Part shown: positions 5,988-38,430 of the stretch, in pieces | Layout of the letters: each line of letters opens with the position of its first letter | How positions within the stretch are numbered: position 1 is the stretch's first letter | Assembly (NCBI GenBank): GCA_051942245.1 | Contig: JAVECL010000001.1 | Coordinates: forward strand, 124,001-188,000 | DNA: 64,000 nucleotides | Reading direction: 5' to 3' | Source: Trypethelium eluteriae | Taxonomy: Eukaryota | The notes under the pieces: generated by a model | What the model was told of the DNA's origin: nothing | The model's input: only the letters and a program-made list of their open reading frames with translations | Databases searched by the model: none | Position numbers and translations under genes: made by a program

Positions 5988-8263
5988 TTATTTTTTCTTG
6001 GAAGCTTGGACAGTCTCGATGATCTTATCAACAACACTTGGGTCAGACAGCTGAACTTAGTTAGTGATCTGCTTCAAACGGATTTCTTCCATGTACGAGA
6101 ATCAAGACACATACCGTGCTTGTGTCTCCCAGTTGGTCTTCTTCGCCTGCTAGAATCTTCCTCAGAATTCTCCTCATGATTTTCCCGCTCCTCGTCTTCG
6201 GCAAATCTGGCACGACAAAGACAGCTTTCGGGGCGGCGAAAGGCCCAATGCTCTTCCGGACCTGCATTATCATGTCCTTTCTCAGCTCTGGACTGTTCGG
6301 ATCGTTAGTCGAAGGGTCCTTGATGGCAACGAACGCATTGACAGCTTGGCCAGTGAGTTCATCTTGGATACCGACGACGGCGGCTTCCGCAACGGCGTGA
6401 TGCTCGATAAGCGCGGCCTCAATTTCAGCAGTGGAGAGGCGGTGACCAGATACATTAACAACATCGTCGACACGACCTCGGATCCAGTAGTAGCCCTCGT
6501 GGTCACGACCAGCGCCGTCTCCGGTGAACTGCGCTTTGCGTGAGTTTCAATCCCGTGCGAAGGCGGTCGGACAAATCATGGAAGACACTTACGTAGTAGC
6601 CCTTGTACACATTCAAGTAAGTATCCATGTACCGCTTGTGTGCGCCCCAAACGGTACGTGCCATACTTGGCCAAGGTTGCTTAAAGGCAAGGACGCCTTC
6701 AACATCATTGCCATGGATTTCTTCGCCAGAGACTGGATCAATGATGGCGGGCTCAATGCCGAAAAAGGGTAGCGATGCACTGCCGGGCTTGGTAGGCGTG
6801 ATGCCTCCGAGAGGAGTAATAACGTGAGAACCAGTCTCCGTTTGCCAATAAGTCTGTACCAAACGTTGAGTTTTTCTGTGAAGAGTGAATGCCAGGACGG
6901 AGAGGGATGACGTACGTCAACGATATGTGCTGCCTCCTTCCCGACGATTTCGAAGTACCACTTCCACACCTCTGCCGCAATCGGCTCACCTACACTACCC
7001 AGCACCCTTAAGTGCTTCATCTCATGCTTGACATGTTCATCACCCGCCCTCTTCAATAACCGCAGGGCTGTCGGTGCTACATAGAATTGAGTAACATTGT
7101 GCTTCTCAATCACATCCCAATATCTGCTGAAGTTGGGATAGGCGGGAGTACCCTCGAACACTACAGTCGCAACACCCAGCAGTAGCGGTGCATAGACAAC
7201 ATAAGTATGGCCTGTAATCCAGCCGACATCACCACCACAGAAGAAGATGTCACTGTCATGGATATCGAAGACATATTTGCCCGTCATGGCGGCACCCAGC
7301 AGGTACCCAGCAGTCGTGTGCATGACGCCTTTCGGCTTACCCGTTGAACCAGATGTGTACAGCAGGAACAAGGGGTCCTCTGAGCTCATAGACTCAGGAG
7401 CAATATAGGCAGGGTATTTCTCCGTCTCCTCCGACCACCACCAATCTCGCCCTTTCGTCATGGGCACCTCGGCACCTGTACGCTTGGACACAAGGCAATG
7501 TGTTACATTCGGACACTGCTTGAGCGCTTCGTCTACAATTTTCTTGGTACCTATGACTTTACCACCCCGCTTGCCCTCGTCCGTGGTGATGACGACCTTG
7601 CTCTGAGCATCGAGGATACGATCTCGTAAGGAGTCGGATGAAAACCCGGCGAAGACGACGGAGTGCACAGCTCCAATTCGTGTACACGCAAGGAAAGCAA
7701 TGAGTGCCTCGGGGATCATGGGCAAGTACAAAGCTACCGTGTCGCCCTTTTGCACGCCCATCTGCTTGAGGACGTAACTGAGCTTGGAAACTTCGCGGAG
7801 GAGCTCAGCATATGTGATTGTTCGGCCCTCATCCGCCTCATCGGCTTCGTAGATGATAGCTGGTTTGTTTGGGTGCTTGGCAACATGTCGGTCAATGCAG
7901 TTGTAGGAGGCATTGAGGCGGCCTTCGAGGAACCAGGCATTGTCGCCGTGCTCGAAGGTACCGGTGTGGACAGTTTGGAAATCGCGCTCCCAAGACAGGA
8001 GGTCTCTAGCCTGGTGGGCCCAGAATTTGTGGGGTTGCTCAATTGATTCCTTGTAAAGCTTCTTGTACTCATCAAGATCTTTGAGGTGGGGTTGCTTGGG
8101 ATGCTTCCTGCGAGCACACAGTCAACCCCTCGCACCCCCGCAACCAGCGCGACAAAGAAAGCAGTGTGACTTACTGGAAGAAGGCTTTCGGGACGTGAAA
8201 AGTGTCAACGGCATGGGCTTCGGCAACCACAGGATGAGGTGGTTTAGCATCGCCTTCGGACAT
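5988..8263 (-). CDS. facA: Acetyl-CoA synthetase (acetate-CoA ligase); exons 8263-8175, 8107-6916, 6853-6593, 6528-6115, 6050-5988
   Basis: AMP-binding motif [21 protein letters not shown] and [12 protein letters not shown]; four canonical introns restore the frame. Confidence 0.97.
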
Positions 8264-11511: not shown

Positions 11512-14500
11512 TCATGCTACCCCCTCAACTATCCTCCCTGGCCCAATACCACCCATCATCATCTCCCGCATCAGTCTACTCCGTCCCGCCAACCTCCTCC
11601 TCCTAGCAGCTCCGCTCCTCTCTTCTGCCCTTCCCATGCCCTCATCCACCCACTCCAGCCTCAGTATCTTGAAGCTCATCCCATCGTGATTCCCTCCCCA
11701 TCTCCGACTCTTCATTCCCCACCCGGTTGTCGATGCGTATTCCTCCAGTGGCGGCAGAATCAACACCGTGATGTGCAGATCTCTCCCATCCGGTGGCGCC
11801 ACAGGTCCCGATCTGGGAGCATGGGCCATCACAGCCTCATCCCCACCCGCAGAACCATCCTCATCGTCAAGGTCCCCAACGAAGCCATTACGACCGCTGC
11901 CATCGCTGCTTTCTTTCCCCAGTAACTCGCTATCGACATCCTCGCCCCATTCACCCTTCACCCAACCGCCATGAATGCACGCGGCAAGCGGATCCGAGTC
12001 GTCGGTGTACACGTCCGTACCCCAAAGACAGCGCGCGCCACATACCGCCTCCCGCTGCGCGGCGTGGAGGTAGTAACGGGGCACACGGATGGTAAAAGTG
12101 CAGTTCGCTTTGGAAGCGTCGAAGCGAGGAAGCGGACGGGCACGAGACGTGAACCCGTGTTTCAGGGTGATGGTCGAGGGCGTTGTCGAGGCCGGGGCGG
12201 AGACGCCCGGCTTGTAGAGAGCGGAGCCGAGATGATGACGTGGGAGGTGGGAAACGGAGGCGAGAATTGGTTGGGAGAGGATGCGGGTCCTTGGTCTGCG
12301 GTGGGGCTGGGAAACCGTATGGTGCGACTTGGGGGGATGGTGGTGGTGGTGTGGGGACGCATGGTGGTGATGGTGTCCATGGTGATGATGAGGCTGAGAT
12401 GGACTAGAAAATATTGGTTGGGATTGGTAGGTCGATTGAAATTTGAGAGGATTGAATGGCGTAGCGTTTTGTGGCATCGAAGGCGTTGAGCCAACGAAGG
12501 AGAGCTCATCGTCGGGAGGTTGAGTGTGATGATGACTTTTGGCTGTTAGCATCGATGCAGGACAACGACAGAAGGATACGTACTGATGGCCGTGGGCCGT
12601 GACGTGGAAATGGTGGCTTGGGTGGCTTGTCTTGGCTCTCTTGCTCCCTCGCTGACCAGAGAACCCTGGAGTCGCCCTGCTCTCACCACTGTCACTGCCT
12701 AACTTGTCTTCATCTTTGATCCTACGTCCTTTGCGACCACCCCGGGACACTTCTCTCACTAGACTGACCCCTTCCGGATCGATATCGAGACTAGGATTAA
12801 CTCTCTCTACTTCATCAAAAGCTCTTGTGGGCGTTTGGCGACCAGGTGTCGAGCTTCCATTTGCTGTCATTCCAGCAATGGGGGTGTTGCTTCCAACGCC
12901 ACTTCCCAGACCCGAGAACATTCTTCCAAATTCATGTTTAACTCCAGGGCCATCTCCTGGACCGGATCGGTGAGGCTGTGCACCCTGCACCGCCTGCGGC
13001 AACGGAGAACCGCGAGCTCGGGTCCGATTGAGCTCAGGACTCACACCAAGTAGACTTCGCTGCTGAGGCGAAGGGTCTTCAGATGCTGTCATTCGATGGT
13101 CAAATGATGGTAAACGGCTTTGAGAGCTAGGCCCATTGGCAAGGCTCGATACTTGTGAAATCGGATTGGCGATCCTCTCCGGCGACCGAGCCGAGCCAAA
13201 TAAGCCACCTTCGATGCGGTCGGTAGGCCTGTCCGCTGATCTGTATTGTTTGATATCGTCGGAAAGAGAACGAGAGTCAGTGGACGGAAATCGAGAGTTT
13301 ACAGGTTGGCTATGAAGGTTTGGTCGAAAAACGTCCGATGCGTGCTCTCTCGATAAATCTCGACTGTTCCTACCAAGAAGGCTTGGGGAATTCCATTCCT
13401 GCTGTTGCGATATTGGATGGCTATAGTCCCTAGATTGGTATGGAGCCACTACTCTTTCCCCAGGGGGACTGAAAGCAGAATGTGTTGTTGGCTGCATTGT
13501 ATTGGCACGTCCCCTCAGATTAGTTGGATTACTTGGTGATTCCTGAAAGTCGTGACTTCCAGGGTTCCGATTCGGCCCCTCTTGTAGCCTACGCGGCTCA
13601 AAGGCGACATCATGAAATACTCGAGCAATGTGACCGTCAGGCTTTCCTGGTTTGGCAGGTGAGAAGGTGGGTTCACGAGGACCAACAGGCTGGCTATTTG
13701 GTCGGGGAGGAACAGACGTGGAATTCGAACGGTTCTCGGAGCGATCCTGACTCTCACCACTCGGCGGCTGAAAGGAGCGAAAGCCCAACGCAGCCGAACT
13801 CTGAGAAATTGACGGTTGGAGCGACCGCGTGAATTCTGGAGACTCAGTCTTTGTATTGAAGGTATGTCCAGGTGAGCCTGCTCCCCCTGATTGTGTACCC
13901 TCCGATCTTGATCCATTACTACTGTACGGTTTATCGGATGAAGTTTGTTGGGAGTATTGCCCGAATGTGTTGGACAGCCGCCGGCGGGGTGAAGGGGGTT
14001 GCATAGGTCTTGCGGAGGTCGACGGCGCCGAAGATGCTGCAGCTGAAGAACTTGAAGATACATGATTCGGCGCTGATGAGTCCGACCCGAGCATAGAAGA
14101 TATAGACATGCTGCTACCTGGCCGGTGCGCTGCGTTCAGAGGTACCAAGTCCCGCGCCGGTCCAAAACTAGACGGTGGGGGAGGGTGACCTCGAGACAAA
14201 GGGTTCGAGAAGGCACTAGAGGCGCTTGGCTGCTGAGAAGAAGACGGTGGCAACATTGTACGTCCTCCTAAGGATGGCGGGTGAGGCGGTGGTGGTGGAG
14301 GTGGTGGAGGATCCAGGGGAGCTAACAACGCCGACAGAGATTAGAAGAGTTGATTCTGGTGCTGTGGCGGGTTTCAATGCCAACATCTTACCTCCATATT
14401 GATGCGCCGCAGTTCCAGCTCCAAGAGAACGTCTTCGGACAGTATCGAACGAATGCGACATGTAGTCAGGGCCGTTGGCAGTGGTCGGGGGAGATGGATG

Positions 14501-15299: not shown

Positions 15300-15857
15300 G
15301 GCGATGTTTCCGTCGACAGCGTTGGATGAGCTGGTCGAGTCAGTGGCTGGAAAGACCGAATGTCAAATCGATGGACGGGACATGACGGGTGTCACTCGTG
15401 TACGATCGAGTGAATATGGTCGGCGGAGGAGGTTATCACGACGTAGGGGAGGAAATGGGATGCGGTGAGCAGGCGTGAGTTCGGGCAAATCCAGAGAGGC
15501 ACGAGACGGGGAAGAGACGATCACCTTGAGCTTAAAATCTAGTCGCAATCAAGGTTGGGTCGGTATCCCTGCTTGCTGCCAATGCCCTGGATCTTGGATC
15601 CCTGTCGGTGCCCGTAGCTTGATGGCTTGATTGCTTGCGCCCTGAGACATGATTCGCCCGTCATTTGGATCTCACGTGTCACTACGCCGCAATCCCAAAT
15701 CTCAGGCAAACTCGCACCCGGAAACACTGCAAATGGCAGGCTGACGAGCGACCGGTGTGTAACACCAACGCCGACCAATGCGAGGTTTTCTTCTCACCTA
15801 AAGATCTTGTTGTCCCTTCTCTTGCAGAGCCTCAGCCTCAGAGCATCTGAACTGACA

Positions 15858-17262
15858 ATGCTTCCTGTTCCAGGTTCTCCTGCCTCATCCATATCAATTT
15901 ATAACGCCCGTCTACGGGCTATCTTCGCAGGTGCTGACCCTTATGTGTGTGCGGCTTTTTGGCTCTTCGGTACGTTTTGGATTCAGCTATCTTTCAAAGC
16001 GGGTGGTTGATTTTCTGTTTCTAGGGTCGGTCAACAACATTCTCTACATAGTCATACTCGCTGCCGCGCTCGATCTCGTCGGTCCGGCTGTCCCAAAAGG
16101 CATTGTGCTGCTCGCCGACATAATTCCTGGATTCATCGTCAAGCTTATAGCGCCCTACTTCATCCATGTGGTGCCTTATCGCAGTCGCATACCCGCATTT
16201 GCAGCCGGATCTTGCTGTGGTATGCTTTTAATTGCACTTACTCCGGGTTCCAAAAGTGCTGGCGCAATCGCCGTCAAGATGGTTGGGGTTGGGTTGGCGA
16301 GTGCATGTAGCGGCGGAGGGGAGTTGAGCTTTCTTGGTCTGACAAATTACTACGACCAGTTCAGTCTGGCCGCTTGGAGTAGTGGGACAGGGGCTGCTGG
16401 ACTCCTTGGGGCGGGATTATACGTGCTGGCAACGACCGTCATTGGGCTTAGCATTCGCACAAGCTTACTTGCCTTTTCTTTGTTACCCGCGATCATGGTT
16501 GGAAGCTTCTTTCTTGTGTTGCCGCAGGGGCCTCTGCGCAGATCGACAGGTTCACAGACATCGTACCAAAGAGTGGAGGTAGATGAGGAAGAAGAGGAGA
16601 ACGATGATCACAGCGAACACCTACTAGGATCGGACAGTCTTTTGAGAGCACCGACTGCCACTGGTACAAAATCCCAAAGACATCTATACAGTGTCTGGAT
16701 AAGCTTCAAGCACAATTTAGCAAGATCGCGAAACTTATTCTGGCCCTACATGGTTCCACTGCTTCTTGTGTATATCTCAGAATACACTATTAATCAAGGC
16801 GTCGCTCCCACGTTGCTATTTCCTCTGAAATCTAGTCCGTTCAGCGAATATCGGTCCTTCTACCCAACATACAATGCCATTTATCAGATGGGTGTTTTCC
16901 TGTCCAGGTCGTCGACGCCATTTTTTCGGATCCATAATCTCTATACGCCCTCTCTGCTTCAGGTTATCAACTTAATTCTGCTAACGTTACACGCCCTCTT
17001 CAACTTTATACCTTCAGTTTGGATTGTATTTGGCTTCATTTTCTGGGAAGGGCTCCTCGGTGGCATCGTATATGTCAGTACGTTTGCCGAGATTACAGAC
17101 AATGTTCCGCAAAAGGATAGGGAATTCTCTTTGACCGCAACGACCGTGAGTGATTCCGGTGGCATTTGTATCGCGGGATTCCTGAGCATGGCGTTCGAGG
17201 TCTGGCTTTGCAATTGGCAAGCTCGCCACGGACGCGGATATTGCAAAAAGGTGCTTGTGTGA
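15858..17262 (+). CDS. BTN1: Battenin/CLN3 family membrane protein; exons 15858-15969, 16025-17262
   Basis: AFWLFG-SVNNILYIVILAAALDLV, GGGELSFLGL, WSSGTGAAG and YISEYTINQGV motifs; multiple TM helices. Confidence 0.95.
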
Positions 17263-17489
17263 AGATTGGAGAGCTGTTCTAGTATTTCCAACTCTTCCGT
17301 CCGGCATCCTGGACTAAGCGAGACCCTGAGTCTGTCGAAAACTCGCCCAGAGTGGAAGTCTCGTTTATCCAAAGAAAGTCACTCTACCTCCATATCCAGG
17401 AGCCATTAGAACTTGTCCTGATTTTCCACGTACATCCTCGTATTGGATCCCTAATGTCCCGCAAAATCACGCTGGGGACTCTGCTCGCC

Positions 17490-17507
17490 TACCTACCTAG
17501 GTAGGTA
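17490..17507. repeat. Perfect 18-bp palindrome TACCTACCTAGGTAGGTA (member of a recurrent intergenic motif)
   Basis: Direct inspection; related copies at 3037-3046, 8810-8823 and 11417-11424. Confidence 0.9.
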
Positions 17508-17745
17508 CTAAGCTAAGGGTAGCGGATAATCACTGAAGTACTATATGTGTTGACGGACACCTTCCGCAATTTCGGCAGCAGAAACGCGGCCAACGCAACC
17601 GCGACTCAGGCAACCGCGACTCATGTCAACATTCTACGACCTTTCCCATATCTCGACCTTTCACAGGCACCACGTACTCTACTTCTTCTCAGATCCCGCG
17701 ACGTTGCCGCTGCGATCTTATGAACTGATAGTGACTCACCTCATC

Positions 17746-20614
17746 ATGTCCTGCGTTTGTGATAACCCAAGCTCTCTACGTCTCTGAAGTATTATTTACA
17801 AATATGTCGTCGTGCACTTCCAAGCCTAATATTCATACTAACCAGGCACGAAACGCGGGTACCGAGCACCGTATCAGAGTCGCCTGTCTATCTGTGAGGA
17901 GATTCTGGGGGTGCTCTCCATCTGAAGCTCTCCCTCCGGGCTATCAGCCTTCGTTTGAACTCGGAAAGCAGTTCATAGAACGAATCAGTCGTCTTTCCAG
18001 GTTGGAGCACCACCTGGCCACTGCACGCCGACGCCTCCTCGACGCTTGCCACAAGAGACTCGTCAACATCCCTTCACCTCTCTCCAGCCAACTGAAGATA
18101 CAAAGGAAAGATCTAGACTACGTTATAGCACAATATCTCGCGGGGCAGTACACGGATAAGGCCAATTGCAGTACGAGGCGGAGCTCCCCACAGTTGTCCC
18201 CGGATATCGCCAGTGACGATTCCCTTTTCAATGAGCGATTTGAACAGCCGAATGGAACACTAATCCTTACTGAAACTCCTTTAGGGGCTATTGATACAAG
18301 ATTAGTGTCAGAACAAAAGCAAGCTAACTCCAAGCCCACCGAAGGTAGAAAAGACAACTTCGATTAGACTTTGCCGAGCTTCTTCACTGACTCCGTAGAT
18401 CTCCCTGCAATTCTTCCTTATCGTACTGTTCCAAAATCTTCAGCCACCAGCTTCAAAGCTCCATGTGCTCCGATGACAAGGCCTGCACTGGAATCAGCAT
18501 ATTTTCCTTCCGGGAGCTCCCTGACAGGAGATCCACCCAAGCAACCACCTCCTATGTCAAACAGTGAGAGCGGACGTGGAGAAGAAGCTGGACATCATCA
18601 TGACCCTGAACTACTCTTGGGAAGGACGTCCACATCTGCCAAAGCTTCTACTCCCTATCCCGATCCAAAGCGCCCCAGGGCTTACGTCAAAAAGACTGCA
18701 GTCTCCATGACGGGGACGCCTTTGTCGCAAAAGGAACAATCACGTTTCACTCACTCAGACGTGGTGCCGCTCAAACGCCATAAAATTTCCAGCAGCACTC
18801 CGCCTAGAGCAAATGTACCTTTCCGGAGCGTTGAAGAAGATGTGACAAGAGGAAATACCAAACAAAGACCAACCCTATCCTTCAATCATGAACTACAGCA
18901 ATTCGGTTCTTCCGTTCCTCCTATCTCTCTAGATAAGAACATTAAATCGCCAGCTGATGGTCGATCCAACGCGACGTCGAAACGAGCCCTTCCACCCACG
19001 CCAATCGGTGGCAGCAAAGGGGATCTGAAGCGACGCAAAACACTTTCCGAAGTGTCGTCATCCTCTAACAGCTCTGTGGACGTACGCATAACTCGCACGC
19101 AGAGCCGCAACAGAACATTGGAATTCCTCAGTCCCAAAGAGTCTTTTTCTACAGGTGCCAAAGAAGCCAAACATATCCCGGAACTCTATTGCCACATCGC
19201 AGATGTTGCTGATCCTGATGCAATTCAATATCCTGTGGCTGTAGCCTCCAGCAAGGGCATGTATGATAGAGTTGAAAATGCTACGGACCTAGAAGAGCTA
19301 AGACAAAGAGCCATCGCGGAACGCGAAGCCCGAAGGCAGCAGCAGTCGGGCCATGACAGGTCAGAGCCAGCATTCGAGAAATCCAAGACCGCGTCAAGCG
19401 AGGCACCCAATGTGCCTAGGATTCTGCTGGATGAAATGCACCAAGCCTTTGAGAACAAATTGTTCTATGTCGTCGGTCTTTCTCGATGTAGTGCACGTCG
19501 TGGTGACTTCAACGGAAGAGAGCATGATTACATGGACAAGATCCACCAAGAGTTCATCGAAGGGTTCAGGAAAACAAAGGAAAGCTTTGAAGAGGGCCTT
19601 ATCAGGTTGGGAGTCATCGAGAGAGACGACGGAAATAACGGAAGTGATGCTGTTGAAGTTGGAGCTGTTGCCTTGGACTCCCGTATTTGCGTTTTGCAAG
19701 AAGATACACACAAAAGCGATATTTCCCGCATGGTTCCAAATGCGAACCGCCGTGAAGAAGACTTCACTGCGAGTAGTCCTACTATTATTGATTTAGAAGA
19801 CTACCGTGAGAAGGAGAGCACTGGAGACACAGAGTATGTGGACGACTTCGCAAACTTCATGCGTGCATACGCAAGTGAGAGATCAGGACAGACCATTAAG
19901 GCGAAAATCACGGATCAGGCTGTCATTGACGTGCCCACCGCCACAATCCATCCCATCAAGGACCGCATCGATGACTATGCGACGACAGAGACGGCGGTGG
20001 TGATCGACAGAGAGGCCAATGTGCGCCCCATGTACCGTGCAGAGCCCAGCGTCAAACCTTCTAGGAAATATGACCAAGATCTGGGCACCGCTCGCAACAG
20101 CACTCCAGCAGGATTGCAGGCGCCCACACAGCCCGTGCATGCAAACGATGAACAGGATGACTTACAGGCGAACAAAGTTGAAGAAATTCTGGGATCATAC
20201 TCTAAAGCTCGGGTCCTGCGTCGAAGGACTAAGATACACAGTCTTAAGGCGGCTGACATTCGCTGCATTCGGAATATTTTTGAGGCCGATCCTGAGACCA
20301 TGGTAAATGAGACGGAATTCAAGAGAGCCCTCAGAGACGCCGCTTTAGAAACGACGAAGTCCAACAGCGCTGGAACCTCTCCTAGCAAGCCTGCCGAATT
20401 GAAGACAGGCTCAAAGGACGATTTTGTTGGTAAGCTGAGCTCTCAAGCTTTGTCAGCAAGTGAGAAAGGTGCTTCATTGCAAGCGACGGACTCGTCAAAG
20501 TCGATCAAGAGGGAAAGCGTCTCGAGTGATGTTCGCCGATCCAATGGCCCTTCTTCAGGCGCTATGTCTTTAGTGTCGCACCTGCATAAGAGGCGTGTTG
20601 CCCCGGGCAGCTAA
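17746..20614 (+). CDS. Hypothetical, largely disordered protein (~900 aa); probable exons 17746-17754, 17846-18344, 18399-20614
   Basis: Two long same-frame ORFs separated by one TAG that lies inside a 54-nt GTAGAA..CTGAC..TAG intron (18345-18398). First exon is tentative. No family recognised. Confidence 0.6.
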
Positions 20615-21404: not shown

Positions 21405-23038
21405 CTAGGGTATATTTGACATTTCAAAAGCTGCCGAATACTGGCCAATCTTGCTGGTGTTCACCTTTTCCCTCCGTCTTCCCTGAATGCCATGCCACTC
21501 GAGCCAAGTCAGAAATGCATGCCTTGGCCCAGTTCCCTCTCGATTAAGCTTGACCTTCTGAGCAGCAACGAAGTATGCAATATCCCAACATAGGAGGACG
21601 ACTGCTGTCATCGGAACGACAATGGCCCAGAAAGTGCCGAAATCTGGAGAGACCCAAACTGAGGTATTTGGTGTATTTGCAAAAAATGGGGTGCTAAACA
21701 TCGCCGCAACGGCTGCAAACGGGAGGAAAATCAGCGTTACAGTTGCGATCGTCCTCATGGATCTGCTATCATCTATTACAGCAGTATTGCTCTGTTGAGT
21801 GACGAGGTTGAAAGCCAAGTTTGCCATATCGCGCATTTTTTTCTCCATACTCTGGACCTGGAAGTTGAGAGACTTGAACAACATGGCCTTATGTTCGAAT
21901 GCATCTTCCGTCAGATGGAAAACTCGATTGGTGCAGTGACTGGGATTTCTTATGAAATACTTGATGTGATGACGACAAATCGCGTCCACTGTCTCCAGTA
22001 TTGCGCCACAGCCCAGGTGGTCAATGTGTTTGGCAACATTAGACATTGCAACAAAATCGAAGCTTTGCATCATCGATGAAGGAGATTTTGCTGATAGAAG
22101 GGTGTCTAACTCGATCTTGTTGACCGCTCTGCGCAGATTTTGCTTCTGTTTGTCCATAAGCGAAAACAGCTGATCCAAGATGATGGTTACTAGGATAAAT
22201 GGATCTTCAAGTGCTTCTTTCCAATCTCCTGAGTAAGCTATTTCAGCGAATCTCTCTTCCATCGCCCGCGGCACGCCCCAGCAGCATAGCGTCACATTGT
22301 CGAAGCGATGGTGCTGTTGGGGATCGTAATCCTCATCCTCGGAGAGACGCGGGCCATCATTCAATGTGAGACTGTGATAGTCTCGCCAGCTTAGAAAGAA
22401 CCCAGCTCTTTGCCACACATAATCTGCTTGGCTCAGATTTAGATGATTGTGGTTGACGTCTCTATGTTTGATCTCATCATGCTCATCGACTTCGATATCC
22501 TTGCACAAGAAATGAAACCATAAGCCTGTGGATGGTCAATACTAAAGCTGCAAAAATCGCTAGCGCTCCTACAATGGTGTCCGTTCTTGCGAGGCCGAGA
22601 ACCAAATCCACAAGTAACGGAATGTATTCTTTCATTCAAGAAGTCGCTCGGGACGGCAAGATGCCGGAAAAGCCTTAGAAGACCTCCGACATTCGAATCC
22701 GTCGCTATATCCAGAGGCGCAAAGCTATGAATTGCTAAGTCATTGTTCACAATGCCGCATGCGCAAGGCTGTCACTTACATCACTCGCAATGGCTTCTCG
22801 ACTTGTTTCTCGAGTTCCGCGACGTGGCTGAAGCTGGAAAACGCTCCATACTGCTGTCCTTGATCTTGAAATCAGTCATTGTCTTAATTATTTTGTGTCA
22901 ATCGGATTTAGCACCTCTGGACCATTCGACGATGTTTAGGTTGAGTTCATCTGTCTCATTCCGGCTGCGTGAGCTGACTTTGTTCGCAAAGTCGTAATAT
23001 CGCGATTCATCCTCAACAATATCAGTCATCACCTGCAT
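21405..23038 (-). CDS. Fungal CorA-like protein (~493 aa) with two C-terminal TM helices; exons 23038-22915, 22864-22780, 22724-22573, 22525-21405
   Basis: Coiled-coil stalk, then DSRSMRTIATVTLIFLPFAAVAAMFSTPFF...FWAIVVPMTAVVLLCW (CorA-type TM hairpin). Three short canonical introns give an intact frame. Confidence 0.8.
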
Positions 23039-23832
23039 GGAAACATTGCCAGCTCGTAATTAAGATAACGCACGCAATAAGAGGGGTCTCGCAGCCCTGT
23101 GCAGAATCGTGTCTTCGGTGTTTACCCAGCTAGGACCGACCAGCGAGCCAGGGACCCAGGCGCGTGGCTGATTTGGGGGCGAAGGCATAAGTTAGGTAAA
23201 TTGACTGTTGAACGACCAATCGGGCTAACAATCCTTCCATTCTAATTCCTCGCGGGCTGTTATTCAAGGGCTAAATTGCAGTCGCTAAATGAAGATCTGC
23301 AGCTTCTGCTCCTTTCCGCCCCTCTTTTATTGCCTTTCGATCAAGGCTTAGCAGCTTGCTTCTACCTGGAACAGCTGAAAACTCGTATAATGATGGCGTT
23401 CTTTCCTACCCTTCCGCAAATTTGGCCAGAAGTCAGCACCCATTATTTCCTTTCCCATCCAGTCTACACGCAGGCATTTTATTGCCCTCCTGAAAATTCC
23501 CGCAGATCTCTTGTCACCCGTTCACGGATCAAAGCATGAGCTCGCAAGGTACCAACCAGGCGAGTAGCTCTCACGGTGGCTCATACAACCCAAACGCACA
23601 ACAACCAACTGGATCCTGGCCCCCAAAACCACTTCAACAGCGCAAGAAGGAAGCAGAGACTTCTCCGAGCGTTCCTTCACAGCAGACGCAATCTCCGTCA
23701 AGCTCAGATCAGACAGGACGTTCGAATAGCTTGTCATAGTCTTGAGATCTACACCGGACCCGACAGAAGGGCAGTATCTCTGAGAACAAAAGTCGCTCTG
23801 AACTCTGTATTTGGCTACCTGTAATCTCTGTC

Positions 23833-26541
23833 ATGGCCTCTTACGCTTCGAAAGGGCCGAAACCCTTAGCATCAGATTCAAGTGAGCAGCTTCGACCAGC
23901 TCCGGACTCTGACATAGAGATGGGGGAGAGGGTGACCAGCTCGATCTACCAATCAAAGTATCAGCCGGTCGGGCATCAGCAGGCATTTGATCCTAAGCAC
24001 TTACGACAGCGCTTCAAGCCATGGCATGAAATCAAGGAACCTGGCAAGAGATACGTGACAAGCGAAATACTCCTTCATCAGGATGGTCATGGACGGGTAG
24101 AGAGCGCTCCTCCTACAGATTGCTATCTCAGTCCTTCTAGCGGTAAGCTTCGTGAGCTTGTTGTGCAAGCGACGGGCCGTATATTTACGACAGGTCCACC
24201 AACTACCTGGGCCCGAACGCCCTCCCGCAAAGCAGTGCCATGGTCAGCCAGATTATCTGATATGCCCTATGATCCGCAAAAGTCAGGAGGGGAACGCATA
24301 TTTGGGTACATGGGCGCTTGTCTCGGCTTACTCTTCGTGCTCTTCGTGCCAATCAACGACCCTGAAGTTCGCTATGGAGGCAACTACGCTCCTTTTCCTT
24401 ACACGGTAAGACGACTTCGCTCCTATGTTGGCCGCATCTGAAGCTCATCATTACTTCACCGCAGTATAGAGGATTTCCGAAAAGTGCCAAAAATGTGTTC
24501 GAAGACCAGGACAAGGAAGCGCCTCTGCAAATCGACAGAGTCAGGGCCGATAATGAACAATTCACTAATGCTCGCAACGCACTAAACAAACGGATAGGAA
24601 GGTCGATGGAACCTAAGCGACTGTGCATAAGAAAACCGCCAGGAGAACGGTTCCCTGATCAGCCAGAGTTCAAGCTTTGGGATGTTGCAGCGTGGAAAGA
24701 GGCAAATCCTGCAGAGCCTATCCCTCCATATCTATTTGTGTCTTTTACCAACGAACAATTCAACGAAACTGAATCTAGTTCGGCGCTGGATTATCTGCAA
24801 TTCATGGCTGAGTATGCAGCCCTCGACGCAAAGGTGGATGCCTTCTGGTGTTCATCCAGCTGCATCGCAAAGCAGGAGGATATCAGAGGTAGTGAGAGAT
24901 ATCCTGACCAAGAGGATGTTCACCGAATTAACGATTACATCCGAGGCGCCGTCGGAGTGGCTATAGTCCTTGCCGAGGTCCAGAATTTGAAGGGAGAAGC
25001 AGCCATAGAAGATTCGCCACTGTCTCTTAACCAGCGCCTGAAGGTCTGGGGAAGACGTGCATGGACTTTTAACGAGATATTGCTGGCTCGAAACAAGAAC
25101 ATACATATTTACACTGCTGGCATACACGCAATTCCAGGTCTTCCAAAAGAGGAGCAAAAGGCGCCCGACATTCGCAACAAGGGCACGTTCTACCAGGAAT
25201 GGGAGGATGCACCGCTTGCCCGCCAACTGACCGACCACTTTGAAGGGACCCTCATACTTAACAGACTAGAGCTCATGACTGTTGCGTACCAATGCCTGCG
25301 TAATCGGCGAGTCCGCAGCTGGGATAAAGCGTTCAACCTCCCCGGGGACCGCGCTTACGCTTTGGCTGGTCTTCTCCAAGAAAGACCCCAAGTCGATATC
25401 ACGGACTCCTCGTTCCAGGCTTTTGCCCGGCTGAGCTTAGCAAATAACAATGACCGTCTCCTTGAACGCCTGATCTGCGTCTTGCCTAGGGGGCCTGCTT
25501 GGGAGTTTCAACCTCAGCAGTACGGTTCCATGGAAGATATGCGGGAGTACGGCGAGCCTTGGTCTGCACTTGATGACGTCTGGAATGCGAATCTTTGGGA
25601 TATTGAACCCCGGTGTCAGATCTCTGGTGTTGGAAAGGGCGATACAGTGATCATTGATGGTGCCCGTGCTGCGTCAATACGATGGAAGGGCTTCAAATCC
25701 GTGGCCACAGTAAAGGGTTTCAGTTGGAAAAGGGCCCTTGCGAAGTTCGCGCTGCTCTTCACTCCCTATGCAATCTTTTCCGGAATCATACTCCTCATAG
25801 CGGGTGCTGCAGTGGGAAACGGAAGCAGCTCATGGATGACTGATTCAGTGGGAAGTATACGCACCCCATTGATGACTGTTGGAGCCGTTTTTCTCGTATT
25901 CGGATTATTACCATGGCTTCTCTCGCCATGGCTCGTTCATAGGATACTTACGGGGAAGTCATACGGCCAGCAAGCCTGGCTCTTTGGAGTTGAAGGCTAT
26001 ATGAATCTGCAAACTATCGAGCAACATATCTGGGGTACTTGGAAAAATCGCTTGAACTGGAGCCCACACGGTTCGTCGTTGTCGTCTCACAGAGCTGCGA
26101 AAGTTGGGTCTGCCGACATTTGCCTGGGGCTAGACGCGATGGAAGATGAGAAACTCGTGGCGAAGATCAAAAAGGCAGAGACGAATGGCCAAAAGGTATG
26201 TCTAGTCCAGTCGCCTACTCCGTATTGTTTCGGGGAGGACGCAGAAACTCTTAGCATTGTGTGACTGATCTTTTTCTCAGTTCTTCACGCTCGTTGACAC
26301 AGGGACGAACACGGTCTACCAATTCCTTGCTCAACGGCCGCCCGTCGCTTTGCTAATATGTGGGCAAGAAGGTGGCATGCAGAGAGCAGTCGGAGTGTCC
26401 TACGATTGGACAGAAAAGGTGCTGTACCGGGAGGCCGTCCTAAGAATGCCGACAACAGTACTCAGTCGGATGGGGCGGATACCGCGATGTCAGATTGGAT
26501 TCGCACGACCGCAGAATGGGACGTGGGCTACGATAGATTAA
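23833..26541 (+). CDS. Membrane protein with central HET (heterokaryon incompatibility)-like domain; exons 23833-24405, 24465-26195, 26281-26541
   Basis: Motif series YLFVSFT / AFWCSSSCI / INDYIRGAVGVAIVL / WGRRAWTFNEILLA / GDRAYALAGLL parallels the HET consensus blocks. One N-terminal and two C-terminal hydrophobic segments; canonical introns. Confidence 0.75.
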
Positions 26542-34503: not shown

Positions 34504-37500
34504 ATGTCTCTTGAGGAGAGACTGGACAAGATTCGCTCATCACCAAAACTCCAAAACCAGCAATACGTGCGTCTATATCCTCTGAGTCTTTGCGCTCAAT
34601 CTAAATAACTCTAGACTGCGGTAATACTGAATGCAGTCGACGAAACTCTTCGAGGACAAAACTCGAAGCCAACGCCTACCGCCTATTTTGCAGCTCTTCT
34701 TTCGCTACTCAACCAGTACATAAATGCGCATGGCACCAACAACAAGGATTTGGCTCATGCTGTCGTCTACCTACTCGACCTTCTCGCTCCCCATGTCCCT
34801 CCCCCACTTCTGCGGTCCAAATTCCCCCAAATCCTTAACAATCTGGCCTCGCCATTGACCCATGTTGACTCTGAAGCACCCATATTGAAGGCGTCTATCG
34901 GCTGTCTTGAATCTCTGTTGGTTCAACAGGACTCGCAAGCATGGCACCTTCCAGTCAACCAAACAAGTCCCCGAGGCGCAATAGCAGGCCTGTTGCAGTT
35001 GGCGGTGGATCGAAGACCAAAGGTTCGTAAGAGGGCTCACGATGCACTCATCAAGGTTCTCCAGAATCCTCCCCCAAGCCCTTCAGTGGACCATCCAGCC
35101 GCGGATATGTGTGCAGAGTATGCACTAAGGAGCTTAAAAGAAATTGCCGAGGCGGATGGGAAGCAAAGAAAACATCATGGGCAACGAGAAGAGCAGCAGA
35201 AGGCTCCTGAGCTCGTTCATGCCATGCAGCTCGTTCGGACAATTGCCACAGCGTCAGGAGGCTGGCCCAGTAGAAAGATTGACTCGCTGTGCGAACTTCT
35301 GCTCAATATCGCGAAGTCAAGCAATCAATATCTCACAATGACCACCTTTGACGTATTTGAAGTGATCTTTTCCGGCATGGCAAACGAAGAGTCTTCCCCA
35401 AAGCTACCACGATTGATCGAGGTCATCGAGGAGCTTCAACCTTCGCGTAATGATTCCGAACTCCTCCCGCCCTGGATCGCAGTACTCTCTCGAGCCTACG
35501 ACGTCTCCAGCCAAGTCGTGCCGGAAGACACATTTCAAAAACTGCCCGAGGTATTTGCCAGTGTAGCTGGATTTCTCGACTCACCATCGCATAATATTCG
35601 TGTTTCTGCTTCAGAGTGCTTAATTTCGCTGTTTCACAACTGTATACCCCATTCTGTTGTTTTAGAACCCTCAATTTTTGACGAAAAGGTTCTCGAGAAA
35701 ATCGCAAAGACCCTGATGAACCTGCTAAGTGTCAAGTACCAATCAGCTTGGATGGAGGTATTCAACGTCCTCTCGTCTGCATTCGATGCACTCCGCTGGC
35801 GATCTAGTCCATTGCTTGCCCCCGTCATAAAGGTTATCGGTGATCTGAGAGCCAATGATGCATTTTCTGGCAAGAAGGAGGCAGATGACGTCCTTGTCAA
35901 AGCAATTCATGCTGCGGGTCCTGATAACATCATGGACGTATTGCCTCTAAATCTCGCCAAGCCAGCCCCGGATCGACCAGGTAGGGCTTGGTTACTTCCA
36001 CTAGTGCGGGATGCGGTCCACAACACTCGCCTATCTCATTTCAGATCTGAACTGGTGCCGTTGAGCGAGGCAATGTTCCAAAGGGTCCTGAATCATGGGG
36101 CGGCAGAGAAGACGATGGAGATCAAGATCTTCGAAACAATCGTCAACCAAGTCTGGTCCTGCTTTCCAGGCTACTGTGATCTTCCGTTGGATTTGATTAA
36201 TGCGTTCGATCAAAACTTTGCAGAATTGATATCCAACCTACTGTACCAGCAGACGGATTTGCGGGTGGCTTTATGCCAGGGGTTACAAAATCTTGTGGAA
36301 TCCAATCAGGCAACTCTCTCAGTGGATGAAGAGAGCGACCTCTCAGTACAAACACGAGTTACAAAAGAGAATGCCAAAGAAAATATTCGTCATTTGGGAG
36401 GATTTGCTGGTAACATGCTTGCTGTCCTCTTCAATGTATACAGTCAGACCTTGCCACAATATCGGGGGCCTATCTTGACTTGTATCAACGCGTATCTTAG
36501 CATCACCCCAGAACAAGAACTCACTGAAACGCTGCACCGTGTCACGGTCATGCTCGAAAACTCCATCGCTGAGGAAGCCCCAAAGGACCACGTGAGCAAA
36601 ACATCTAAGCCAGAGAACAGAATGCCGGCGACATCACACACCCTCATGGACCTTCTCGTTGTACTCTCCCCTCACCTGACCGCCGTGTCACTACCCTCCC
36701 TGCTCTCTCTAGCAACTAAAATTCTCCTCTCTAAGGATTTTGATCCTGCTTTGAAAAAGAAAGCGTACAAATTCATCCCTCGAATTGCCTCCTCACCAAC
36801 ACTCTCGTCACTGCTTACGGCACATTCAACGACCCTCCAACAACTCGTGCTCGACTCGGCTCCCCTTGTTGTAGCCCAGACCCGACGAGACCGACTCGCG
36901 GCGCTGAAGGAAATCGTGCAAAGACTACCGGAGAACGACCTGTGGTTCATCCCTGCTGTCCTTCCAGAAGTCGTTATTTCTGCCAAAGAAATCAATCAGC
37001 GCGCGCGGGAAGCCGGATTCGATGTGCTTGTCACAATGGGTGAACGCATGTCCCAGGGAGGCGTTGTCAAAACCGTCAAGGTCCCCGGCTTGGCTGAGCC
37101 AATTGATCAGCAGCAAACAAAAGGAGACGCAACCATGCATATCGACCAACTGCCTTCGCAAACGACAACAGGGGACGGAGAAGGTGGTGACGTGCCGGCA
37201 TCTCTCGATGAATACATTACCATGCTCTCCGCCGGTCTTGCGGGCTCCTCACCCCACACCATCGCGGCAACCATTACCTCCCTGTCACGCGTCCTCTTCA
37301 CCTTCCACGGAGAGTTATCCCACCCTACTCTTACTGATCTCCTTGACACAGTCAGCCTCTTTCTGTCCTCCTCCCCCAACCGTGAGATTGTGCGATCTAC
37401 CCTTGGCTTCATCAAAGTTGCTATCGTCGCCCTGCCCAATGATATGATGGGGGAGAGGCTCAGTGTCTTAGTTCCGACGCTGTGCAAATGGGCAAGGGAA

Positions 37501-38430
37501 CAGAAGGAGAGACTGAAGATGAAGGTGAAGAATATTTTAGAACGAATGGTCCGGATCTGGGGGTTCGAAGCGGTGGAGAAGTGGACGCCCGAGGAGCAGA
37601 GGAAACTGTTGGCCAATATTCGGAAAATTAGGGACAGAAGGAAGAGGAGGAAGGAGGCAGGGAAGGGGGAGATGGAAGACGAGGACGAGGAGGTGGAAGG
37701 GGTTGAGGCTGCAAATGGGAATAGCAGGAAGAAGCAATTCGAGAGCGAGTTTGATGAAGCAGTCTACGGGAGTGAAGACGAAGAAGAAATTGATGAAGGA
37801 GAAATGGAGATCGAGACGGGAAAAAGAGGCAAAAGGGGCAAAACGGAGAGGCAAGCGTACATCCATGAGGAAGAGGACGAGCCACTGGATCTTCTGGATC
37901 GGAAGGCATTGGGAAATATTTCGACGACGAAACCCCTCCAGAGAAGACAACCACCTGCGCAGAGGATGAAAGCAAAGGTAAATCTAGATGGTAAACTTCT
38001 CCTCGGCGATGATGAAAGTGATGATGATGAGGAGATGCAAACATTTGATGACGCTGGTAATGTTGAGGCGAAGCTGAATGCTAATGAGGCATCGCTTGAG
38101 GCGGGTATTGATGCGTACGTCTCGGCCATTCGAGGAAAGGATGCCGGGCATAGAGGGCAAAAGGGCAAGTTGAAATTCAAGCAGAAGGGAAGAGAAGATC
38201 ATGATGAGATGGAGGTCGATGCTCGGCAGGTGGCTACCGCTCAGAAGCAGAAAGTGGCTATGAATGTTAACAGGGGAAACCCTACCCCATCGAAAGTACG
38301 CACTGAGAGGGTTGGCAAAGGGAGCATCGCAAAGAGAGCCCAGCGACCGGGTTTAGGCGCTACGAAGATGAAGCATGATGGTGTGGGCAAGAAGAGAGGT
38401 GGCCGGGATGGAAGAACATGGCGAAGTTGA
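34504..38430 (+). CDS. RRP12: Ribosome biogenesis HEAT-repeat protein Rrp12 (NUC173); exons 34504-34566, 34615-38430
   Basis: MSLEERLDKIRSSPKLQNQQ start, D.RPKVRKRA, GRAWLLPLVRD, QVWSCFPGYCDLP; acidic/basic tail. Confidence 0.95.

Follow-up and report, generated by a model that had tools for sequence, protein, structure and literature searches.

A conserved head-to-head gene pair encoding HET-like and CorA-like proteins in filamentous ascomycetes

Few gene families of filamentous fungi are as abundant as the HET-domain genes, and few are so little understood. Here we describe a HET-like gene and a CorA-like gene that stand head-to-head in a 64,000-nucleotide stretch of the Trypethelium eluteriae genome (assembly GCA_051942245.1, contig JAVECL010000001.1, positions 124,001 to 188,000 of the forward strand; hereafter the window). 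The HET domain (PF06985) is regarded as a distant relative of TIR domains and as sufficient for cell death (PMC12881547, PMC10197012), and canonical HET proteins are described as either soluble or forming the N-termini of NLRs (PMC10197012). According to the same reviews, the enzymatic activity of HET and its downstream partners are still undetermined (PMC10197012, PMC12881547). Two-gene cell-death units are known from fungi, in which the gene of a death-type domain is tightly linked to a partner gene, as in the combinations of HET with a partner, NLR with HET-S and gasdermin with a protease (PMC10197012, PMC10890737); het-B, for instance, is reported to be a HET and lectin-fold protein with a linked PII-like protein (PMC10890737). 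The het loci are said to be few per species, and HET-domain gene families to vary strongly in copy number between species (PMC10197012). Proteins of the CorA family have been connected with immunity in prokaryotes, where a CorA-family membrane effector of type III CRISPR is described as activated by SAM-AMP (PMC10600005, PMC12255297), and a fungal protein with the CorA domain PF01544, mimpvic32 of Morchella importuna, is listed among vegetative-incompatibility candidates (765 aa in the text of the source and 773 aa in its Table 5, with 8 introns; PMC8940278).

The pair in the window resembles the fungal two-gene units in that a gene with a death-type domain is tightly linked to a partner, but the partners differ and the present pair keeps its partner across distant lineages. 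A first-pass annotation, made from the letters of the window alone, had described two intact, divergently transcribed genes about 800 bp apart, and this arrangement was borne out. The CorA-like gene occupies 21405..23038 on the minus strand, as read from open reading frames (ORFs), splice sites and tblastn, with the stop codon at 21405-21407, the last exon at 21405-22523, three short upstream exons and the ATG at 23038; its product P0076 (491 aa) matched the window with 100% identity over residues 120-491 in tblastn. The HET-like gene, which encodes a protein with three predicted transmembrane (TM) segments (P0001), occupies 23833..26541 on the plus strand in three exons (23833-24405, 24465-26195 and 26281-26541) separated by introns at 24406-24464 and 26196-26280, and its stop codon ends at 26541. 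The two ATGs are spaced by an intergenic region of 794 bp (23039..23832) that presumably serves as a bidirectional promoter. The annotated form of P0001 (825 aa) starts at 23920, and a further ATG lies upstream at 23833. Because the N-terminus of the Trypethelium homologue P0002 matches this upstream ATG, the true start is probably 23833, and the annotated one too far downstream.

Loci from metagenomes were fetched with three peptide patterns of the HET-like family only, which gave 406 pattern stretches and 259 confirmed relatives, from which the best 80 loci were kept, and the ORFs in all six frames of the kept loci were scanned with a hidden Markov model of the CorA-like family. A CorA-like gene was found upstream of the HET-like gene and on the opposite strand in 32 of the 36 loci having at least 4 kb of upstream sequence. 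After dereplication at 90% nucleotide identity (48 clusters), the partner was present in 15 of the 18 clusters with at least 4 kb upstream and in 13 of 16 at 5 kb, and the two genes were oriented head-to-head in all 15 linked lineages. Every CorA-like ORF match (118 of 118) fell on the minus strand and no further than 6.7 kb upstream of the HET-like gene; no CorA-like match was present in 356 kb of downstream and 88 kb of far-upstream flank (about 444 kb together), nor downstream in any of the 34 loci having at least 4 kb there. When the ORFs of 22 representatives were compared all-vs-all, the widely common families were the two genes themselves and antisense ORFs inside them; canonical HET came next, in 4 loci, and no other flanking family was common to more than 4 of the 22. 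The 8 largest ORFs lying between the two genes matched no Pfam family above cut-off.

The same adjacency appears in named genomes as consecutive locus tags or accessions: EKO04_000282/000283 and XPS68044/68045 in Ascochyta lentis, EKO05_0008696/0008697 in A. rabiei, and Q9165_006298/006299 in Trypethelium subeluteriae. Homologues in Trypethelium and Bathelium are 82-87% identical. Since 15 of 18 lineages are linked and no other neighbour is kept, these data identify a conserved two-gene unit rather than a chance neighbourhood: the HET-like/CorA-like pair is a conserved, divergently arranged two-gene unit of filamentous ascomycetes. The idea of the first-pass annotation that the two genes are not unrelated neighbours thus holds, and the search for repeated adjacency that it had proposed returned the pair in 15 of 18 metagenome lineages, in Ascochyta (two genomes) and in Trypethelium, head-to-head in those lineages at about 35-45% protein identity.

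In 4 of the 21 representative loci, canonical HET genes also stand no more than 10 kb away from the HET-like gene (L027:350-3226 on the minus strand; L054:19325-21112 on the plus strand; L060:12835-15144 on the plus strand together with 16743-19112 on the minus strand; and L061:12552-14570 on the minus strand). The four of these five genes that were scanned matched PF06985 with E-values of about 1e-18 to 1e-32. This is a hint at a tendency of the pair to lie where HET genes are abundant.

The two genes have diverged in step. Between loci, the HET-like gene averages 44% pairwise identity and the CorA-like gene 35%. Across 97 locus pairs the identities of one gene correlate with those of the other (Spearman 0.47, a value reached in 0 of 2000 label permutations), as would be expected if the two genes were passed on together. 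Proteins of Dothideomycetes, Sordariomycetes, Leotiomycetes and Cirrosporium give the best named matches to the loci, and with identities of 28-75% they make the placement of the loci in these classes only suggestive. A quick maximum-likelihood tree was built from 37 HET-like sequences (midpoint root, support by the Shimodaira-Hasegawa-like approximate likelihood ratio test, SH-aLRT; L034, L041 and L066 left out as their longest HET-like ORF is shorter than 350 aa). The 12 CorA-linked loci in the tree and the window protein fall into one clade of 29 rows with an SH-aLRT support of 93. The three unlinked lineages lie outside this clade, beside Leptodontidium and Hypoxylon proteins. The Trypetheliales HET-like sequences (P0001, P0002 and P0005) form a clade on a long stem branch of 1.42 changes per column, and the HET-like and CorA-like genes may have changed together in this lineage.

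In the three unlinked lineages (L050, L054/L056 and L060/L064) no CorA-like gene was found within 10 kb upstream, which counts against the reading of the pair as a coupled unit. An aspartyl protease gene and an aldolase-II-type gene lie upstream of the HET-like gene in L060, and no recognisable gene lies upstream of it in L054. In L050 the same position is held, on the opposite strand, by a gene for a VIT-family metal transporter (PF01988, E = 5e-42; L050:6978-7988, minus strand), a single case that may be coincidence.

We then compared the product of the HET-like gene with known HET and TIR domains. The four HET-like blocks that the first-pass annotation had placed between TM segments were all located, at 24729 (YLFVSFT), 24843 (FWCSSSCI), 24927 (INDYIRGA) and 25047 (WGRRAWTFNEILLA), and hydropathy predicts three TM segments around them: TM1 at 24301..24357 (P0001 residues 128-146), and a hairpin at 25743..25940 formed by TM2 (25743-25814, residues 589-612) and TM3 (25866-25940, residues 630-654). 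The blocks belong to a putative HET/TIR-like core at 24717..25184 (model residues ~85-240), delimited from the structural model, the VIA and hhalign searches and the alignment. It is followed up to TM2 by a conserved extension at 25185..25742, made in the model mostly of helices and then strands, which contains many nearly invariant columns and whose fold is barely covered by the structure searches. A highly conserved, family-specific C-terminal domain (25941..26541, residues 655-825) is split by the intron at 26196-26280. Lys/Arg-rich stretches precede TM2 and succeed TM3, so that by the positive-inside rule the central and C-terminal domains are suggested to be cytosolic.

Several lines of evidence connect the central domain with HET. 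PF06985 was weakly matched by 11 of 40 aligned relatives (best E = 2.9e-4), and in hhalign a 75-row alignment of the family aligned with five canonical HET proteins from the fetched loci at E = 4.9e-5 over 82 columns, with three blocks in register, among them the Trp-x-Arg-x-Trp...Glu block. All 40 of the aligned sequences share W290, D319, R322, R360, W362 and E366, a pattern that fits a retained active or binding site. E366 (25074-25076), which at 90% or more is nearly invariant in the alignment of 75 rows as well, is the Glu of the RxWTxQE-type block that the first-pass annotation had seen retained. This residue may be the counterpart of the catalytic glutamate of TIR NADases, an assumption that draws on the order of secondary structure elements in the model and not on a residue-level superposition. 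The AlphaFold2 (AF2) model of the central domain (24465-25724, 420 residues; mean predicted local distance difference test score, pLDDT, 78.5; predicted template modelling score, pTM, 0.80) has a beta-alpha-beta core. In Foldseek the highest probabilities were those of SARM1 TIR chains (0.77 at E = 0.07), and the wide search with VIA aligned 104 residues with SARM1 TIR at Z 5.4 and a root-mean-square deviation of 3.6. Counted by title, the 50 VIA matches listed comprise 21 TIR, 3 SEFIR and 8 nucleoside-deoxyribosyltransferase-type chains, with 1t1j as the top match (Z 6.0).

Other results weigh against this kinship. No Pfam family was matched by P0001 or the window exon at E ≤ 1 (the gathering score of PF06985 is 22.5 bits), the hhalign probability against canonical HET was only 68%, and Foldseek returned no match to the central domain at E ≤ 0.001. 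By the tool's own warning, VIA Z-scores below 8 are common, and those of the central domain are 5-6; the model is therefore compatible with a TIR-like core without proving it. Nucleoside 2-deoxyribosyltransferase-type chains, moreover, score like TIR chains (Z 4.3-4.9 in VIA). A profile of the HET-like family found no match among PDB sequences at E ≤ 10. The family also departs from canonical HET in sequence and architecture: of the canonical W-I-D-x-x-C-I-x-Q block neither the Asp nor the Gln is retained, and the window domain sits between TM helices and continues into the conserved extension and then into a C-terminal domain outside any known family. The fold comparison proposed in the first-pass annotation therefore came out mixed, in that the HET-like blocks and the similarity to SARM1 TIR stood while a significant Foldseek match and a Pfam match in the query itself did not appear. 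On balance, from sequence profiles and a predicted structure, we regard the central domain with moderate confidence as a divergent HET relative with a TIR-like core.

The C-terminal domain matched no Pfam family. Its look-alikes among the Atlas clusters are four clusters of Ascomycota (TM-score 0.74-0.86) in which the aligned stretch carries no family, and the remaining rows listed score 0.30-0.35. Some members of the HET-like family (P0241, P0252, P0255, P0257 and P0259) and the Atlas clusters bear the UniRef or automatic cluster name "3-hydroxyisobutyrate dehydrogenase protein". We found no support for this name in the Pfam or structural results, and it looks like a propagated misannotation.

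The partner gene product can be placed more firmly. The AF2 model of the CorA-like protein, built from a 74-row alignment (pLDDT 86, pTM 0.76), consists of an N-terminal alpha/beta domain and two helices, a long one at residues 319-394 and a shorter one at 413-444. Foldseek gave 59 PDB matches at E ≤ 0.001, and among the matches listed every top row is the CorA of Thermotoga maritima (best E = 3.4e-9, probability 1.0, 404-431 aligned columns). On the evidence of this model the CorA-like protein has the complete CorA fold with two C-terminal TM helices, predicted by hydropathy at 21684..21752 (TM1, P0076 residues 377-399) and 21564..21638 (TM2, residues 415-439), both on the minus strand. In Pfam, PF01544 was matched by 5 of 8 relatives (best E = 1.1e-6), and a precomputed PF01544 match is present on 8 of 16 proteins from a later search. 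The window ORF itself scores 10.4 bits (E = 0.41), below the gathering score of 27, which speaks against membership in the Pfam family as defined.

The GMN motif defines the Mg2+ selectivity of CorA. The T. maritima Mg2+/Co2+ channel and the CorA-like protein have in common the N-terminal alpha/beta domain, the long stalk helix and the two C-terminal TM helices, and they differ at this motif. The sequence AMFSTPFF stands at the end of the first of the two TM helices, and in a profile alignment with T. maritima CorA, whose match is weak (E = 1.6, with CorA in 7 of 7 matches), S396-T397-P398 (codons 21687-21695, minus strand) takes the place of GMN. None of 21 aligned sequences (10 dereplicated loci, 10 named proteins and the window, with 3 of the locus rows lacking the GMN position owing to an ORF cut by an intron) has GMN at the outer end of TM1; partners and relatives have GSQ, GTQ, GSN, GGA or STP instead. 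Since STP replaces GMN, we regard the product as a CorA-fold protein without the Mg2+-selectivity feature. The first-pass annotation had proposed exactly such a CorA-type stalk and TM hairpin with GMN changed to STP, and the fold comparison, made on a single chain, agrees with it. The STP form is found in the window protein, in a Bogoriella protein and in two Penicillium proteins (P0076, P0081, P0083 and P0084), and the other aligned partners keep the glycine. The family differs from CorA also in its N-terminal domain, which has family-specific, nearly invariant motifs such as P93 and W121. The family is large, as a profile search gathered 4556 representatives at E ≤ 0.001, 295 of them reaching E ≤ 1e-30.

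What might hold two such genes together? The explanation we favour, and to which we give about an even chance, is functional coupling at one membrane, with the HET/TIR-like protein as trigger or enzyme and the CorA-like protein as ion-conducting output. What the data show are the family and fold resemblances, the genomic linkage and the correlated divergence; enzyme activity, gating, topology and physiological role are inferred. The HET-like product would be a three-pass membrane protein whose HET/TIR-like and family-specific C-terminal domains probably lie on the cytosolic face, and the CorA-like product, with its full CorA architecture and replaced GMN, would presumably form a pentamer. The role of trigger or enzyme would fall to the HET/TIR-like domain, which keeps an invariant Trp/Asp/Arg/Glu set such as a nucleotide-cleaving site of the NAD+ type would show. 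The CorA-like protein would conduct ions as the output, gated by the product of the enzyme or by direct contact, so that ions would flow under control and, at the extreme, the cell would undergo regulated death.

One form of this coupling, the signal enzyme and pore effector in immunity or cell death that the first-pass annotation had proposed, is tentative and less likely than not. The linked pair, the GMN-less CorA fold and the HET-like domain with its invariant Glu are in line with it, and arguments in favour of the immune reading are the HET kinship, the view in reviews that HET is a TIR-related cell-death domain (PMC10197012, PMC12881547), the precedent of the SAM-AMP-activated CorA effector (PMC10600005, PMC12255297) and the hint from Morchella (PMC8940278). 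The likeness to type III CRISPR is one of analogy, in that a CorA-fold membrane protein is linked to the gene of a putative nucleotide-processing enzyme, but the partner here is HET/TIR-like rather than Cas10 and the host is a eukaryote. PADLOC CorA models matched none of 4 fungal CorA-like proteins at E ≤ 0.01 (P0233 at E = 0.03-0.05, over the TM region only), so that at the level of sequence a specific kinship to CRISPR CorA effectors was not found, and the PADLOC and NCBIfam scans gave nothing beyond weak CorA matches. Another form that we consider possible, with no more confidence, is an ancient pathway of filamentous ascomycetes. A HET/TIR-like enzyme anchored in the membrane would produce or degrade a nucleotide signal, and this signal would gate a CorA-fold channel without GMN whose gene lies on the other side of the shared promoter.

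Three considerations tell against a coupled immune function. Allorecognition and immune genes usually evolve fast and turn over fast, and the deep conservation of the pair is unlike them. The evidence for HET/TIR kinship is of moderate strength. A shared promoter, furthermore, implies co-regulation at most and no common mechanism. A complex prediction for CorA-like residues 65-445 with HET-like residues 210-825 scored 0.00 twice; as it was run with one chain of each protein, without alignments or controls, it speaks neither for nor against binding.

The most probable alternative is that the two genes are co-regulated and mechanistically independent, their bidirectional promoter being conserved because both answer the same cue, such as ion or membrane stress. 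We judge this unlikely. The head-to-head orientation in all 15 linked lineages is what it predicts, and no contact or signalling between the products was seen in this analysis. Promoter sharing, however, rarely keeps genes together at 35-45% identity while other neighbours change, and the intergenic regions contain no motif above shuffled controls: in 16 of them, which for the metagenome loci also contain undetected first exons, the best 8-mer occurred in 9 of 16, equal to the maximum of 100 shuffles. The gap between the detectable homology ends of the pair is 1.5-5.3 kb (median ~2.2 kb), a span that includes the poorly conserved first exons.

Less probable still is a homeostatic module unrelated to death, in which a nucleoside or nucleotide hydrolase and a cation transporter with changed selectivity would together serve ordinary ion or nucleotide homeostasis, either at the plasma membrane or at an organelle. 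Deep clade-wide conservation fits such a housekeeping-like role, the deoxyribosyltransferase-type chains (with 1t1j at the top) match the model on a par with TIR, and the VIT-family transporter of L050 shows a metal transporter at the partner position in one unlinked lineage. Yet the sequence kinship of the central domain is to cell-death HET and not to deoxyribosyltransferases, and GMN has been lost in every partner examined.

It is doubtful that the pair is a two-gene allorecognition (het) locus with the CorA-like protein as the polymorphic partner of a HET-type gene. HET genes with linked partners are known, het-B among them (PMC10890737), the HET-type gene here likewise has a tightly linked partner, 4 of the 21 representative loci have a canonical HET gene no more than 10 kb away, and a CorA-domain gene is one of two vegetative-incompatibility candidates reported from Morchella importuna (PMC8940278). 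The resemblance to mimpvic32 lies in a fungal PF01544-domain protein that the source names as a candidate only in non-self recognition; its paired candidate, by contrast, is given without a recognised domain, and it can be likened to the CorA-like family by description only (PMC8940278). Against a het locus, the pair is kept across distant lineages instead of being lineage-specific, and the Trypethelium and Bathelium homologues are 82-87% identical.

On the last reading, an ordinary Mg2+ transporter lies beside an unrelated gene in inherited gene order. If the pair were adjacent only in its closest relatives, Trypethelium and two ENA contigs, shared descent would be explanation enough, but chance is very improbable and is contradicted by the 15 of 18 lineages that keep the pair and no other neighbour, by the flanks of about 444 kb empty of CorA-like matches and by the absence of GMN.

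In the full-text literature, with supplements outside the search, we found no description of the HET-like/CorA-like gene pair or of a membrane-anchored HET family of this architecture, and no mention of the gene identifiers of the pair was found in papers. The text matches to "cora" in PMC4986451 are the word "coral". A cell-death-type domain gene with a linked partner is already known in kind, and what is new is the fixed linkage of a HET-like with a CorA-like gene. A HET-like family with one fixed genomic partner at 35-45% identity represents a concrete two-component system, which is rare for fungal cell-death domains, and a large orphan group of GMN-less fungal CorA-fold proteins (the 4556 representatives above) gains a candidate functional context. 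If the coupling is real, the logic of an enzyme with a CorA effector in prokaryotic immunity would extend to eukaryotes; if the nucleotide-signal pathway is real, the HET domain would gain a biochemical activity and its first dedicated downstream effector.

Finally, the neighbours of the pair in the window are ordinary genes, namely an acetyl-CoA synthetase-type AMP-binding enzyme (6613-8121, minus strand), Rxt3 (11512-14340, minus strand), CLN3/battenin (15856-17262, plus strand) and RRP12 (34615-38430, plus strand), none of which recurs beside the pair in the other loci compared. The window and the database record of P0001 differ slightly, at 1 of 825 residues: residue 713 is Val in the window translation (window 25074-26195) and Phe in the database, a difference of strain, assembly or cluster representative.

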